64,000 bases of DNA, from NCBI GenBank assembly GCA_017446885.1, contig JAFSOR010000009.1, positions 102,159 to 166,158 of the forward strand, written 5' to 3'. Shown here in pieces: positions 46,784 through 53,896 of this stretch. A model generated the notes under the pieces. The model was not told the origin of the DNA, searched no databases, and saw only the letters and a program-made list of their open reading frames with translations. Both the position numbers and the translations under genes were made by a program. Positions within the stretch are counted from its first letter, which is position 1. Every line of letters starts with the position of its first letter. Source of the stretch: Spirochaetia bacterium. GTDB taxonomy: Bacteria > Spirochaetota > Spirochaetia > CADAEX01.

Positions 46784-46822
46784 CCTTAATTTTATTATTT
46801 GATAAAGTGTTTTGCGTTAATT

Positions 46823-46895
46823 GGTGGCGTAACTCAGTCGGTAGAGTAAGCGGCTCATATCCGCTCTGTCAGGGGTTCGAGTCCCTTCGCCACTA
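46823..46895 (+). tRNA. tRNA-Met (anticodon CAU; elongator Met or Ile-lysidine type, cannot distinguish)
   Basis: manual cloverleaf fold: acceptor GGTGGCG/CGCCACT, D-stem ACTC/GAGT, anticodon stem AGCGG/CCGCT with loop CTCATAT, T-loop TTCGAGT; 73 nt, no encoded CCA. Confidence 0.85.
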
Positions 46896-46900
46896 AAAAA

Positions 46901-48337
46901 ATGAAAAGATATTATTTCATTTTTCTTTTTTTTGTCCTTGCAATTGCTGGCTGCGGAGGCAGTGGCGGAAGCAGCAGTGATGACAACGGCGGAGGCGGAT
47001 GAGGCGATGGTGATACGGCTGGCCTCTGCTTTACTTCTTCTGGATCAACTGTTGTCTCAATCAGAATAAATGGAACTCTTGATAATATTCCGACCCTTGA
47101 CTATTCAAAAGATGGTTCAACTTGGACTCCAATTGTTCTGAAAAATGACGATACAGTTAAAGTTTCTGATCTTTCAGATGGTGAAAAGGTATATTTAAGG
47201 GCACATAATACTAATAACTCTTTCTCTGAAAGTGTTTCTAAATTCATACAATTCGTATTCACTGGTACAGGTTCTATCTCAGCCAGTGGTAATATAATGA
47301 GTCTTCTTGATAAGACACTCAGTTCAACTAAAATACCTTGTGACAGATGTTTTTGCAGGCTTTTTGAGAATTGTACAGCATTAACCAGAGCCCCAATTTT
47401 GCCAGCAGTAACATTGACAAGTGGCTGCTATCAAAATATGTTCGATGGATGCACTAACCTTAAGACAGCTCCGATCCTTCCTGCATTGACAATGAAGAAT
47501 CAATGTTATTGTAGAATGTTTGAAGGCTGTACAAGCCTAGTGACAGCCCCGGCTCTTCCTGCAACAACATTAGCAGATACGTGCTATACAGAAATGTTCT
47601 CTGGATGCACAAGCCTTGTAACACCTCCAGTTCTACCCGCAGAAACTTTGGCAAGTGAATGTTATTCGGGGATGTTCGCTGGCTGTACAAGCCTTGCGAC
47701 AGCTCCATCTCTTCCTGCGACAGCATTGGCAGATAGTTGTTATTCAGAAATGTTCTCTGGATGCACAAGCCTTGCGACAGCTCTATCTCTTCCTGCGACA
47801 GCATTGGCAGATAGTTGTTATTCAGAAATGTTCTCTGGATGCACAAGCCTTACGACAGCTCCGGCTCTGCCCGCAGAAACTTTGGCAAGTGAATGTTATC
47901 ATTCTATGTTCACTGGCTGTACAAGCCTAGTGACAGCCCCGGCTCTTCCTGCAACAACATTAGCAGATACGTGCTATTATGGTATGTTCAGTGTTTGTAT
48001 AAACCTTTTAAATGCCCCAACTCTTCCTGCAACAGTATTAAAAACTAATTGTTATCATTCTATGTTCTATAACTGTACAAGCCTTGTGACAGCTCCTGAT
48101 CTTCCAGCAATAACGTTGGTAGATGGTTGTTATTCATTAATGTTTAACAGCTGTACAAACTTAAATTATATTAAAGTTTCTTTTACCAGTTGGGGTCCAC
48201 AGACTAATGGCTGGGTCTATAATGTAAAAAAGGATGGAACATTCGTTTGTCCTGAGTCGTTAGCAATGGAGCCAGGAAGTAGCGGAGATAGAGGTGTAAA
48301 CAAGGTCCCAATAAGTTTTTTCGTCGAAAACCCCTGA
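46901..48337 (+). pseudogene. BspA/LrrA-type leucine-rich-repeat surface lipoprotein gene interrupted by a single in-frame TGA at 47000..47002
   Basis: lipoprotein signal MKRYYFIFLFFVLAIAGC plus Gly/Ser linker in the same frame as downstream ORF 47297..48337; about eleven 26-aa repeats LPxxTLxxxCYxxMFxGCTSLxTAPx. Confidence 0.55.
47390..48170 (+). repeat. tandem 78-bp (26-codon) Cys-containing LRR units with several near-identical copies
   Basis: units at 47711..47788 and 47789..47866 are about 90 percent identical; a 43-nt string (agccccggctcttcctgcaacaacattagcagatacgtgctat) occurs at both ~47539 and ~47935. Confidence 0.75.
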
Positions 48338-49360: not shown

Positions 49361-49945
49361 TCAGATAAGGCCTTTGGTGGAAAGCACCTGGTCTGAATCT
49401 GCAGCTGCATAGGACTGGGCAATTGCTTTGCCAAGAGCCTTGAAAAGGGCTTCTGCCATGTGGTGGCTGTTCTGGCCGTAACGGCAGGTGCAGTGCAGTG
49501 CTATCTGTGCTCTGTTTGAAAGGGCTATAAGGAATTCCCTTATAAGGCACATATCGAAGGTGCCGGAATAGGGCTGTGGAAAATCGGCATTAAGCACCAT
49601 GGAAGGGCGGCCGCAGATATCGATGACAGCCTCGGACACAGCCTCGTCCATAGGGATGATGGAATAGCCGTAGCGCTTGACGACACCTGCTTTCTCAGCA
49701 GACTTGGCAAGGGCATCACCCAGTACAAGACCGATGTCCTCAATCAGGTGGTGAGGGTCTACATCTATATCGCCGTCTGCCTTTATCTTAAGGGCAAAAC
49801 TGCCATGGAATGCCATTGCTGTAAGCATGTGGTTGAAGAAAGCCACAGGGGTATCAATCTCAACACCCTTTGCATCCATATCAAGAGTCAGCTTTATGTC
49901 TGTCTCCTTGGTCTTTCTCTTTAATACAACAGTACGGTTTCCCAT
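49361..49945 (-). CDS. hisB: imidazoleglycerol-phosphate dehydratase
   Basis: N-terminal RKTKETDIKLTLD and HHLIED metal-binding motifs; start at MGNRTVV rather than the longer ORF. Confidence 0.85.
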   Translation of the reverse strand: MGNRTVVLKRKTKETDIKLTLDMDAKGVEIDTPVAFFNHMLTAMAFHGSFALKIKADGDIDVDPHHLIEDIGLVLGDALAKSAEKAGVVKRYGYSIIPMDEAVSEAVIDICGRPSMVLNADFPQPYSGTFDMCLIREFLIALSNRAQIALHCTCRYGQNSHHMAEALFKALGKAIAQSYAAADSDQVLSTKGLI

Positions 49946-50035
49946 GTTGCGCCTCCTATTTGTATTATTTATCGGCACCTTATATATATTCCTATACTAT
50001 ACAAATAGAGTTTTTTCAGTTATAGTGTCAGAACA

Positions 50036-50075
50036 GCGGTCGTTCCGTTTACCCGCTTGAACAAAACAAGGGAGT
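50036..50075 (+). promoter_or_regulatory. probable preQ1-I riboswitch (translational) in the yhhQ leader
   Basis: hairpin AGCGG-[UCGUUCCGUUUAC]-CCGCU followed by tail UGAACAAAACAAGGGAG, closely resembling the T. tengcongensis preQ1-I aptamer ...CCCAGUUAACAAAACAAGG; tail overlaps the SD GGGAG. Confidence 0.6.
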
Positions 50076-50080
50076 TAAAC

Positions 50081-50782
50081 ATGCATTTCGGATTCAATGA
50101 GATGATGTGGTTTGCTGTGCTTATAGTGAACTTCATCATAGTATTGGCTGTCTACCGTTTCATGGGAAAGACAGGTCTTTTCGTATGGATGGCTATTGCC
50201 AGCATCCTGGCAAATATCCAGGTACTTAAATTGGTGGAATTCTTCGGGTGGAATATAACTTTGGGCAATGTGCTCTATGGCACATCATTCCTGGCTACTG
50301 ATATTATCTCGGAGAACTATTCCAAGGAGCTGGCCCATAAATCGATATGGGTAGGGTTCTTTGCCATGATCTCCATGATCATACTCATGACACTCTCCTG
50401 CCTTTTCATACCTGCTGCCGATGACTTTATCTCGGAGCCTATGAAGGCTATTTTCACCGTAATCCCACGGGTATCATTCGCAAGCCTTATCGCTTATCTG
50501 GTATCTCAGAACTTCGATGTATGGGCATACCATTTCTGGAAAAATAAGTTTCCTGATACTAAGTTCATTTTTATACGGAACAACCTGAGCACCATGACAA
50601 GCCAGCTTATAGACAGCGCAATATTCACCACTATAGCTTTTGCCGGGATGTATCCTTTCAAGGTGCTGGTTCAGATTATCATCTCCACCTATGTGCTCAA
50701 ATGGCTGGTGGCTTTCTTTGACACCGGATGTGTATACATAGCTGCCAGCTGGTTCAAGAACAGTAAAGTCCGGGAGATGTGA
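50081..50782 (+). CDS. queuosine-precursor transporter (YhhQ/COG1738 family)
   Basis: 6-7 TM protein with family-typical motifs; start placed at the ATG at 50081, 6 nt downstream of GGGAG (the ORF-track start at 50057 lies inside the riboswitch). Confidence 0.75.
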   Translation: MHFGFNEMMWFAVLIVNFIIVLAVYRFMGKTGLFVWMAIASILANIQVLKLVEFFGWNITLGNVLYGTSFLATDIISENYSKELAHKSIWVGFFAMISMIILMTLSCLFIPAADDFISEPMKAIFTVIPRVSFASLIAYLVSQNFDVWAYHFWKNKFPDTKFIFIRNNLSTMTSQLIDSAIFTTIAFAGMYPFKVLVQIIISTYVLKWLVAFFDTGCVYIAASWFKNSKVREM

Positions 50783-51411
50783 TGGATAAAGGCTTTAAGG
50801 AATATCTTGACCAGTTTGTTGAGTTCACCAGCCAGTATAATAAAGAGATTTATTATGCAAATCAGGGACGGGATGATATACAGTCGCCAGTAGAGCCTGA
50901 GATAGGGCGTTTTCTGGCATTCCTCATCAAGAGTACTGGTGCAAGGAAAGTTCTGGAGCTGGGAACCGGGGTAGGAAACTCGACTATATGGCTTGCTGAG
51001 GCAGTAAAGGAAATTGGCGGCAATGTCACCACTGTTGACAACCATCCCCGCACCTGGAAGGAAGCCTGCGGGAATATAGAGAAATCGGGGCTTAAAGATT
51101 ATGTTGTCATGATACATTCCGACGTGGATGAAGCCACACGCAAGCTTAAAGAAGAAGGAGCAGTATTTGACATAATCTTCCAAGACTGCGGAAAATATAC
51201 CTACACAGTTATCTACGAGGATGTGGCAGCTTTGGTTAGAAAGGGCGGTATAATTGTTGCCGACGACACCATGTTCCCTGTATGCCAAGGGGTCAGACCC
51301 AACCTGGGCCGCCACATGGACCGGTACAACAGGCTGGTTTTTGCAGACCAGCGCTTCTTCTCCACCATGCTTCCAGTGGGTCACGGTCTGACCTTAAGCT
51401 GGAAAAAATAA
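50779..51411 (+). CDS. class I SAM-dependent O-methyltransferase (family 3, TrmR/YrrM-like)
   Basis: SAM motif VLELGTGVGNST; overlaps the yhhQ stop by 4 bp (co-transcribed). Confidence 0.7.
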   Translation: MMDKGFKEYLDQFVEFTSQYNKEIYYANQGRDDIQSPVEPEIGRFLAFLIKSTGARKVLELGTGVGNSTIWLAEAVKEIGGNVTTVDNHPRTWKEACGNIEKSGLKDYVVMIHSDVDEATRKLKEEGAVFDIIFQDCGKYTYTVIYEDVAALVRKGGIIVADDTMFPVCQGVRPNLGRHMDRYNRLVFADQRFFSTMLPVGHGLTLSWKK

Positions 51412-53105: not shown

Positions 53106-53230
53106 TATATATATCCTGACCCTCAGCTGGAAAAGATAATATATCTTATAAAATATATTGCTGTCTCTATTTATTTTTGCATTATTATATGATAATCTTT
53201 ATAATTGGAGGCATAATTATTCCAATCGAT

Positions 53231-53896
53231 ATGACAAAAATTACAAAGGAAATGGCTGCTAAAGCATTGGAGTGCAAGACAGCCGATGACCTGGTTTCCC
53301 TTGCTAAGGCCAACGGTGTCACGCTTACAAAGGAAGAGGCTGAGGCCTACTTGGCTGACCTTGAGGATGTTGAACTTGACGAGAAAGCTCTTGATAAAGT
53401 GGCAGGAGGATCCTGTTACACTCAAACGTCTTGCGATAATAATGAATGTAATCCCGCCCACCCCAAGTGCTTTACAGGCGATTCAGAGGTGGCTGTGCCT
53501 GGCGGTGTAAAGTGCATCAAGGATTTGCAGCTTGGAGACAAAGTTATTACCTTGGATGCATCTGGGAAGGAGATTGTAGGCGTGGTGACCGAAGTGGTTC
53601 CGCCGACAGAAGAGGATATTGTGGAGGTCACTTTCTCCAATGGCACACTTTGGCGGACAACCGAAAGCCAGACCCTGTATCTGGGACATGAGCAGAATTA
53701 TATGGTAAAGGATGCGAAAGGAAAGAAAGCCCTTTTACGTGATGGCGGAACTGCCACTGTGACAGATGTCAAGTTCACAGGAAAGCGGGAGACAGTATAT
53801 GACGTTCTGGTTGGCGAGGAGGAGGATGAGGATGTCATCTTCGTCTCTGGAATTGCTGCCGAAGGATATTTTACCAAGGGTGAGCGAGGACTGTAA
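53231..53896 (+). CDS. leader-peptide precursor: Nif11-like double-glycine leader (60 aa) + 19-aa Cys-rich core + C-terminal Hint (hedgehog/intein-like) domain
   Basis: leader ...ELDEKALDKVAGG; core SCYTQTSCDNNECNPAHPK; Hint block A CFTGDSEVAV, GDKV, block F-like VYDVLV...VIFVSGIAAEG; possible ATT start at 53219 at ideal SD spacing. Confidence 0.7.
   Translation: MTKITKEMAAKALECKTADDLVSLAKANGVTLTKEEAEAYLADLEDVELDEKALDKVAGGSCYTQTSCDNNECNPAHPKCFTGDSEVAVPGGVKCIKDLQLGDKVITLDASGKEIVGVVTEVVPPTEEDIVEVTFSNGTLWRTTESQTLYLGHEQNYMVKDAKGKKALLRDGGTATVTDVKFTGKRETVYDVLVGEEEDEDVIFVSGIAAEGYFTKGERGL

Follow-up and report, generated by a model that had tools for sequence, protein, structure and literature searches.

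A probable translational preQ1-I riboswitch of type II design ahead of a yhhQ-family transporter gene in a rumen spirochaete

We analyzed the leader of a yhhQ-family queuosine-precursor transporter gene in a 64,000-nucleotide (nt) stretch of DNA, referred to here as the window, that comes from a rumen Spirochaetia lineage of metagenome-assembled genomes (MAGs). A 135-nt intergenic region separates this gene from the divergent hisB and contains a leader element of 40 nt (50035-50074). The element resembles class I preQ1 (preQ1-I) riboswitches, and in particular the type II aptamer of T. tengcongensis (Tte), the sequence of which is CUGGGUCGCAGUAACCCCAGUUAACAAAACAAGGG (PMC10639078). A first-pass annotation made from the letters alone had called a probable preQ1-I riboswitch here, with a 5-bp stem (AGCGG/CCGCU), a 13-nt loop, and a YhhQ-family transporter downstream. 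Stem, loop and gene family are all confirmed, and our results support the call, which is coherent and probably right. The parts of the element and the gene that follows it are listed below; residues carry the last two digits of their window positions, P and L denote paired and loop regions, and equivalences to Tte residues are positional.

50035-50039, plus strand: 5' strand of P1, AGCGG, pairing with 50053-50057; RF00522 (the Rfam family PreQ1) aligns it to the P1 of the model, and it is 100% paired in alignment A2.
50040-50052, plus strand: the 13-nt loop, UCGUUCCGUUUAC, read directly from the sequence.
50040-50042, plus strand: L1, UCG, the same as L1 of Tte and invariant in all orthologs; U40 is the counterpart of the ligand-contacting U6 of Tte, and C41 that of C7 in the Tte ceiling triple.
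50043-50047, plus strand: 5' strand of P2, UUCCG, the strand facing the Shine-Dalgarno (SD) sequence, complementary to C67 and G70-A73 and without variation in the close lineage; G47 is the counterpart of Tte G11.
50048-50052, plus strand: L2, UUUAC; A51 corresponds to the gatekeeper A14 of Tte and C52 to the specificity cytosine (Tte C15), and the AC that they form ahead of the P1 3' strand marks type II as defined in PMC11625349.
50053-50057, plus strand: 3' strand of P1, CCGCU, pairing with 50035-50039.
50057-50059, plus strand: TTG, the start in the open reading frame (ORF) track, overlapping the end of the P1 3' strand.
50058-50066, plus strand: L3, UGAACAAAA, A-rich and, at 9 nt, as long as U21-A29 of Tte; A66 is the counterpart of the ligand-contacting Tte A29.
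50058-50074, plus strand: the tail, UGAACAAAACAAGGGAG, read directly from the sequence.
50067-50074, plus strand: predicted 3' strand of P2, overlapping the SD sequence, with C67 and G70-A73 paired and A68-A69 as a bulge.
50070-50074, plus strand: SD sequence GGGAG, read directly from the sequence.
50075-50080, plus strand: 6-nt spacer UUAAAC between the SD sequence and ATG.
50081-50083, plus strand: start codon ATG.
50081-50782, plus strand: yhhQ-family queuosine-precursor transporter, 233 amino acids (aa); TIGR00697 188.9 bits (cutoff 50.95), Pfam Vut_1 155 bits.

The element carries every defining feature of the type II subgroup of preQ1-I riboswitches that can be judged from sequence. Type II is defined by AC before the 3' strand of P1, and the ligand is contacted by the specificity cytosine, the L1 uridine and the last adenine of L3 (PMC11625349). 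The element has a 5-bp P1 with G-C pairs adjoining the pocket, and it has AC, not UC, at the defining place; the P1 5' strand is followed by U40-C41, as in Tte, and not by UU. The L1 uridine, the last L3 adenine and an A-rich L3 are in place, as judged by position. Loop and tail are complementary such that P2 would give an H-type pseudoknot, a pairing that draws on sequence complementarity and a single supporting event in a deeper relative (below). The association with a gene of queuosine biosynthesis or salvage holds throughout, with more than 20 copies that each precede the same ortholog, and yhhQ salvages preQ0 and preQ1 (PMC10622847).

The tail is nearly identical to that of Tte, as the first-pass annotation had claimed. 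It matches the 14-nt Tte tail UUAACAAAACAAGG at 13 of 14 positions (Tte UUAACAAAACAAGGG, window UGAACAAAACAAGGG), and two orthologs, L009 and L014, are identical to Tte at all 14. The Tte tail with at most one mismatch occurs once in the window, compared to 0.03 occurrences expected from shuffles.

The whole element, loop included, behaves at the sequence level as a unit under very strong purifying selection. Look-ups of genomes, protein contexts and metagenomes yielded more than 20 orthologous loci, and the element always precedes the same ortholog, down to 83% protein identity and 78% nucleotide identity of the coding sequence. Among 11 full-length orthologs, only two of the 40 aptamer columns vary: U48, which is C in one ortholog (L029), and 50059, which can be G, U, C or A while all other L3 positions are invariant. 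In the same 11 orthologs, 181 of 233 third-codon positions are variable (Fisher p = 3.5e-19 against the aptamer), as are 98 of 466 first and second codon positions (p = 0.012) and 43 of 45 columns of the upstream flank. A51 and C52 are invariant in all spirochaete copies, Tte and B. subtilis (Bsu) (alignment A2). The invariant 13-nt loop and the A-rich tail argue for a tertiary fold or a ligand pocket over a simple hairpin. They bear on the possibility that the element acts independently of any ligand, by stabilizing the mRNA, setting a fixed level of translation or binding a protein, its likeness to preQ1-I being superficial. A protective hairpin needs neither such a loop nor such a tail, yet variation is confined to the two columns.

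A deeper relative of the locus preserves the predicted loop-tail pairing. The transporter of this relative (L037) has 54-57% protein identity and lies in the same synteny (rlmN-hisB, divergent from yhhQ-methyltransferase), and its copy of the element reads AGCGG-UCGUCCGUUUAC-CCGCU-AUACCAAAACAAGGAG. RF00522 was again the top match, full-length, at 14.3 bits. Compared to the window, one U of the loop and one G of the tail have been lost together, leaving UCCG opposite C-AA-GGA, and this matched loss keeps P2 in either plausible register. A metagenome scan in which P1 and parts of the loop and L3 were left free found no covariation and no other gene contexts: of its matches, 11 were true, each belonging to the same yhhQ lineage and having an unchanged P1, and one (L023) was due to chance. 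Because P1 is invariant in all 11, covariation within the variant is unobtainable from these collections.

RF00522 was the best-scoring Rfam family for the leader, at a score well below its curated threshold. A permissive search of 161 nt of leader (two strands, 4227 families) gave a full-length match (model 1-45, window 50030-50075) with 15.8 bits, compared to the gathering score of 39, and E = 0.44; re-expressed for one family by our own arithmetic, this is approximately 1e-4 in the leader and 0.04 in the whole window. The alignment covers the stem of the model, the U after the stem, ACCC, and AAAAC..AAGG, and the loss of score stems from insertions and deletions in the loop and tail. At the gathering threshold, Rfam gave just one tRNA in the whole window and only tRNAs in 20 related loci. 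The preQ1-II (RF01054) and preQ1-III (RF02680) families had no match in the leader at E ≤ 10. The first-pass annotation had proposed an RF00522 search as a check on its call, with the lack of any covariance-model hit among its refuting conditions; a top, full-length match below the gathering threshold is neither a clean hit nor the lack of one.

We calibrated RF00522 by retrieving and scoring five natural aptamers. The validated type II aptamer of B. subtilis, in an exact copy located ahead of queC, scored 44.9 bits, approximately 29 bits above the window element, and three type I-like copies scored 47-52 bits. A Staphylococcus type II-like copy with a 14-nt loop scored 35.8 bits, under the threshold of 39. 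This copy is in L043 at 146-192 (OR844990.1, a 'Staphylococcus phage' record, organism unverified). Because of this copy, we conclude that the curated threshold misses some evident members. For a Tte-like natural sequence, the plasmid and phage collections yielded only chance matches inside genes. The element has no second copy in the window as judged with model R1, the next match having 11.3 bits (E approximately 1). Similarities of the leader to plasmid records were chance matches only, and neither the variant pattern nor a Bsu-like pattern had a match in the viral collection.

The loop is predicted to pair with the tail and to bury most of the SD sequence. The predicted P2 pairs are U43-A73, U44·G72, C45-G71, C46-G70 and G47-C67, with A68 and A69 bulged, and they would cover four of the five SD bases. 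Complementarity between the loop and the CAAGG/SD region was a point on which the first-pass annotation had staked its call, and it is present (UUCCG against C67 and G70-A73). The energy of this loop-tail duplex is -4.7 kcal/mol, compared to -0.1 kcal/mol for Tte; the weak Tte value agrees with the remark in a review that only two of the four P2 steps of Tte are canonical (PMC11625349). P1 alone has -5.5 kcal/mol, compared to -5.9 kcal/mol for P1 of Tte.

The 5' part of the element can also form a hairpin that excludes both P1 and P2:

50035-50049, plus strand: competing hairpin AGCGG/CCGUU with loop UCGUU, pairing 35-39 with 45-49; present in the minimum free energy (MFE) fold.

This hairpin is possible because CCGUU of the loop nearly copies the P1 3' strand CCGCU. 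It has -4.8 kcal/mol, near the -5.5 kcal/mol of P1, and -7.2 kcal/mol in L029, in which U48C, the sole loop substitution observed, makes it perfect. It is also possible in L037. The competing hairpin may represent the RNA in its ligand-free state, and it may just as well be incidental.

The element is present in some alleles of the locus and absent from others as a discrete block:

50033-50070, plus strand: 38-nt block containing P1, the loop and L3 as well as the first bases of the P2 3' strand.

Three orthologs (L002, L003 and L004) lack this block, which appears as a clean 38-column gap between a conserved GTGTC-NNN and GGAG in alignment A1; in L002 the corresponding place is at approximately 1480-1500. 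They have 92-93% aa identity, the same synteny and promoter-like boxes, and they retain GGAG and ATGCATTTCGG, with GGAG serving as the SD sequence. Thus, the block behaves as a module the removal of which leaves promoter, SD sequence and ATG intact. The aptamer-less leaders read GTGTC-GGAGGAG (L002) and GTGTC-TCAGGAG (L003 and L004), and these alleles are not simple one-step deletions. A mobile-element origin of the block gained no support: its edges have no repeats like target-site duplications, and the leaders are not one-step deletions. The aptamer-less alleles nest within the aptamer-bearing clade, L002 beside L024 and L019, in a neighbor-joining tree of the coding sequences without bootstrap. 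This nesting, together with the aptamer in the deep relative L037, favors one or two secondary losses. The distant orthologs L016, L036, L033-35 and L038 also lack the element.

The same alleles bear on the start codon of the transporter gene. TTG 50057 lies within the block missing from L002-L004; other alleles read TTT, TTC or TTA there, and the third base, 50059, is hypervariable. Based on these comparisons, the start of the transporter is comparatively proven to be ATG 50081. The start, ATGCATTT, is common to all close orthologs, including the aptamer-less ones. The first-pass annotation had thus rightly set aside the ORF-track start at 50057. It had also read the SD sequence as GGGAG, 6 nt ahead of the ATG; motif and spacing stand, and the coordinates given for it (50071-50075) were off by one, the one point of its description that needed correction.

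The sequence at this spot was also broken in one assembly. L001 (which begins CAAGGGAG) and L005 are both from MAG RUG13243 and are two contigs with the same gene, the break being within the aptamer tail; this may reflect strain heterogeneity at this spot.

A promoter candidate lies upstream of the element and a second gene follows the transporter gene:

49998-50026, plus strand: sigma-70-like promoter candidate, TATACA (49998-50003), a 17-nt spacer and TATAGT (50021-50026), with 9 of 12 matches in a consensus scan.
50782-51411, plus strand: family-3 S-adenosylmethionine (SAM)-dependent O-methyltransferase, Pfam Methyltransf_3 89.9 bits.

The promoter-like boxes (CTATACTAT and a TATAGT-like box) are kept in the orthologous loci. 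The candidate -10 box ends 8 nt ahead of P1, and with the transcription start site that this predicts, the aptamer would occupy the extreme 5' end of the mRNA. Between the aptamer and the ATG, a scan of the leader found neither a hairpin resembling a terminator nor a U-run. This result bears on whether the element terminates transcription, as does the B. subtilis queC switch, which shows that class I type II includes transcriptional riboswitches (PMC11625349). We rejected transcription attenuation for lack of a terminator, and the gap between SD sequence and ATG is just 6 nt, with the SD sequence inside the P2 3' strand. We therefore regard a transcriptional switch as very improbable.

The start of the methyltransferase gene overlaps the stop of yhhQ (UGAUG), and because of this overlap the methyltransferase is probably co-regulated with yhhQ. 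The pairing of the two genes is preserved in L009-L015 and L037. Relatives of the methyltransferase in the PDB include a tRNA 5-hydroxyuridine methyltransferase (8k1f, 1e-14) and YrrM (5zw3). Based on these relatives of the coupled gene, the control of yhhQ may extend to a second gene for tRNA wobble modification.

On the other side of the element, hisB is on the minus strand (49361-49978). Its longest ORF opens at GTG 49978; orthologs of 194 aa and a GGAGG SD sequence indicate that the true start is ATG 49945, giving 194 aa. We found no queuosine-pathway genes within approximately 10 kb. The neighborhood also contains a tRNA-Met (CAT) (46822-46896), a BspA-type leucine-rich-repeat protein (47297-48337) and a small Hint-domain protein (53177-53896), none with an obvious link to queuosine.

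Several results weigh against a riboswitch of the preQ1-I class. The RF00522 score is far under the curated threshold that the B. subtilis aptamer exceeds. P1 is invariant within the spirochaete lineage and has no covariation there, all three compensatory P1 pairs come from Tte and B. subtilis, for which homology is assumed, and covariation in P2 is limited to the single event in L037. The structure tested was derived from the window itself, and the count of compensatory pairs is therefore supportive and not independent. The nested MFE fold is no better than that of shuffles (z = 0.69), and it favors the competing hairpin together with a second hairpin that covers the SD sequence. This second hairpin is weak and relies on the non-conserved G59, and the folding tool does not model pseudoknots; we regard the z-score as uninformative for a pseudoknot aptamer of 34-40 nt. 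Finally, the natural aptamer-less alleles show that the switch is dispensable.

The sub-threshold score, the MFE fold without significance, the lack of P1 covariation in the lineage and the loss of the element without replacement are also what would speak for a ligand-independent leader element. Set against this are the likeness to Tte, which reaches every ligand-contacting residue and the length of L3, the ranking of RF00522 as top family for two diverged copies (window and L037), and a gene context as expected for a preQ1 riboswitch. Together with the near-invariance described above, these make a ligand-independent element quite unlikely in our judgment.

Based on the combined evidence, we believe that the element is likely a class I preQ1 riboswitch of type II, Tte-like design that acts as a translational OFF switch, and by its sequence we take it to be a lineage-specific variant of a known riboswitch class in Spirochaetota. 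We infer the ligand, the fold, the transcription start site and the direction of regulation from the sequence. The mRNA would probably start a few bases ahead of P1. Without ligand, the tail and GGGAG would be exposed, with the 5' part in P1 or in the competing hairpin, and the transporter and the translationally coupled O-methyltransferase would be produced. Once a 7-deazaguanine precursor (preQ1, possibly preQ0) accumulates, C52 would pair with it, U40 and A66 would recognize it, the L3 adenines would dock in the minor groove of P1, and pairing of U43-G47 with C67 and G70-A73 would complete an H-type pseudoknot. The pseudoknot would bury four of the five SD bases and block initiation at ATG 50081, such that a plentiful precursor shuts off yhhQ and the coupled methyltransferase. 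Taken at face value, this would be fairly ordinary feedback control of precursor uptake by a preQ1-I riboswitch.

The same fold and logic could serve another 7-deazaguanine ligand, such as preQ0, queuine base or an analogue of rumen origin. The specificity cytosine, the L1 uridine and the L3 adenine read only the shared guanine-like face and the minor-groove edge (PMC11625349), and in solved structures L2 and the backbone touch the 7-aminomethyl group (PMC10622847). The element differs in L2 and its linker: with two additional loop nucleotides in the G42-C46 linker and a third in L2, the pocket would have another shape on the side toward the 7-substituent. Both preQ0 and preQ1 are substrates of YhhQ (PMC10622847), and the lack of de novo queuosine genes nearby is weak evidence in the same direction. 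All pocket residues, on the other hand, are identical to those of preQ1-binding Tte, natural type II aptamers with loops of 12-14 nt exist, such that loop length alone implies no new ligand, and we found no positive evidence for a different one. We consider a switch for another ligand unlikely.

Some other yhhQ leaders differ from that of the window. Leaders of Oceanispirochaeta-type genomes (L030 1074-1140; L031/L032 approximately 895-995) have, by eye, a core of the Bsu type: the loop of L030 is UGCCAGAUUUUAC compared to UUCUAGCUACAC in Bsu, and its tail is AAAACUGGGAG compared to AAAACUAAGG. Hairpins are inserted in L3 of both the L030 and L031 leaders and in L2 of L031, and the L031 fold has z = -3.2. 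Rfam found nothing in the L030 and L031 leaders at E ≤ 10, and R1 with filters off gave 4.6 bits (E 2.8). These leaders may be an unrecognized expanded form of preQ1-I. The ORF called in L030 (1001-1849, 282 aa) extends upstream through the leader, and the real ATG is at 1151. Gene callers thus run through riboswitch leaders, the error being of the same type as that at TTG 50057 in the window, where the start codon of the transporter is corrected to ATG 50081. A 63-64% identical ortholog (L017, approximately 1100-1190) has a different leader, GGCGG-UUGUUUCUCU-CCGCC-UGUUUUG, which is terminator-like or possibly a decayed aptamer. Its called start is too far downstream, and the real start is ...gaacgATGCATTTTTGC.

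RF00522 falls more than 20 bits short of detecting the lineage, and counts of preQ1-I riboswitches in Spirochaetota are therefore probably too low. The phylum list of a 2024 review is without Spirochaetota (PMC11625349), and our literature search found no work specific to preQ1 riboswitches in spirochaetes. Taken jointly, the observations could mean that Spirochaetota have their own uncatalogued class I preQ1 subtype before yhhQ, a reading that we consider doubtful as a whole. Such a subtype may have the compact consensus AGCGG-UCG-(U)UCCG-UUUAC-CCGCU-N9-CAAGG(G)AG, and may combine a type II pocket with full, type III-like SD occlusion and a built-in competing hairpin. The Oceanispirochaeta-like L030 and L031 would be its expanded relatives, in which L2 and L3 have taken up entire hairpins; the changes in L2 and the linker might move ligand preference, for example to preQ0 or queuine; and gain or loss of the switch would have recurred among rumen strains that are almost identical. 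Alleles that share this promoter and gene, with protein identity above 92%, occur both with the aptamer and without it, and they amount to an isogenic-like pair for gauging the contribution of the switch in a rumen community.

Comparison with characterized preQ1-I riboswitches places the element closest to Tte. Tte U6, C7, G11-C30, A14, C15 and A29 correspond to U40, C41, G47-C67, A51, C52 and A66 of the window; in Tte, the ceiling is G11-C30 with C7, and A14 is the gatekeeper (PMC10622847). Both have a 5-bp P1 with two G-C pairs by the pocket, L1 UCG, a 9-nt L3, AC before the P1 3' strand, the SD sequence in the P2 3' strand and no terminator. The loop is 10 nt in Tte and 13 nt in the window, the difference being two additional U after L1, ahead of the C-C-G segment, and a third in L2. 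The extra nucleotides are confined to linkers (window G42-C46 compared to Tte G8-A10, and U48-U50 compared to U12-A13). In addition, A10 of Tte is C in the window, and because of this P2 of the window can form 4-5 standard pairs, covering G70-A73. The competing hairpin and the host, Spirochaetota compared to Bacillota, also set the window apart from Tte, which is a translational type II switch with partial SD occlusion.

The B. subtilis queC aptamer, a member of RF00522, shares the H-type pseudoknot, AC ahead of the P1 3' strand, an L3 rich in A and a P2 with Watson-Crick pairs throughout. It differs in that it terminates transcription and has L1 UUC and the tail AUAAAAAACUAAGG. The type III riboswitch of E. 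coli has an SD sequence extensively buried in P2 and AC at the specificity position, as in the window. In contrast, type III has UU following the 5' strand of P1, its pyrimidine-rich loop is smaller and its turns are tighter, whereas the window has UC and a larger loop, and type III is almost confined to Pseudomonadota (PMC11625349, PMC10622847). Compared to these systems, the element would offer a naturally occurring type II scaffold that has a competing hairpin and in which the anti-SD helix is extended and entirely Watson-Crick, one that helps to compare partial with full occlusion of the SD sequence.

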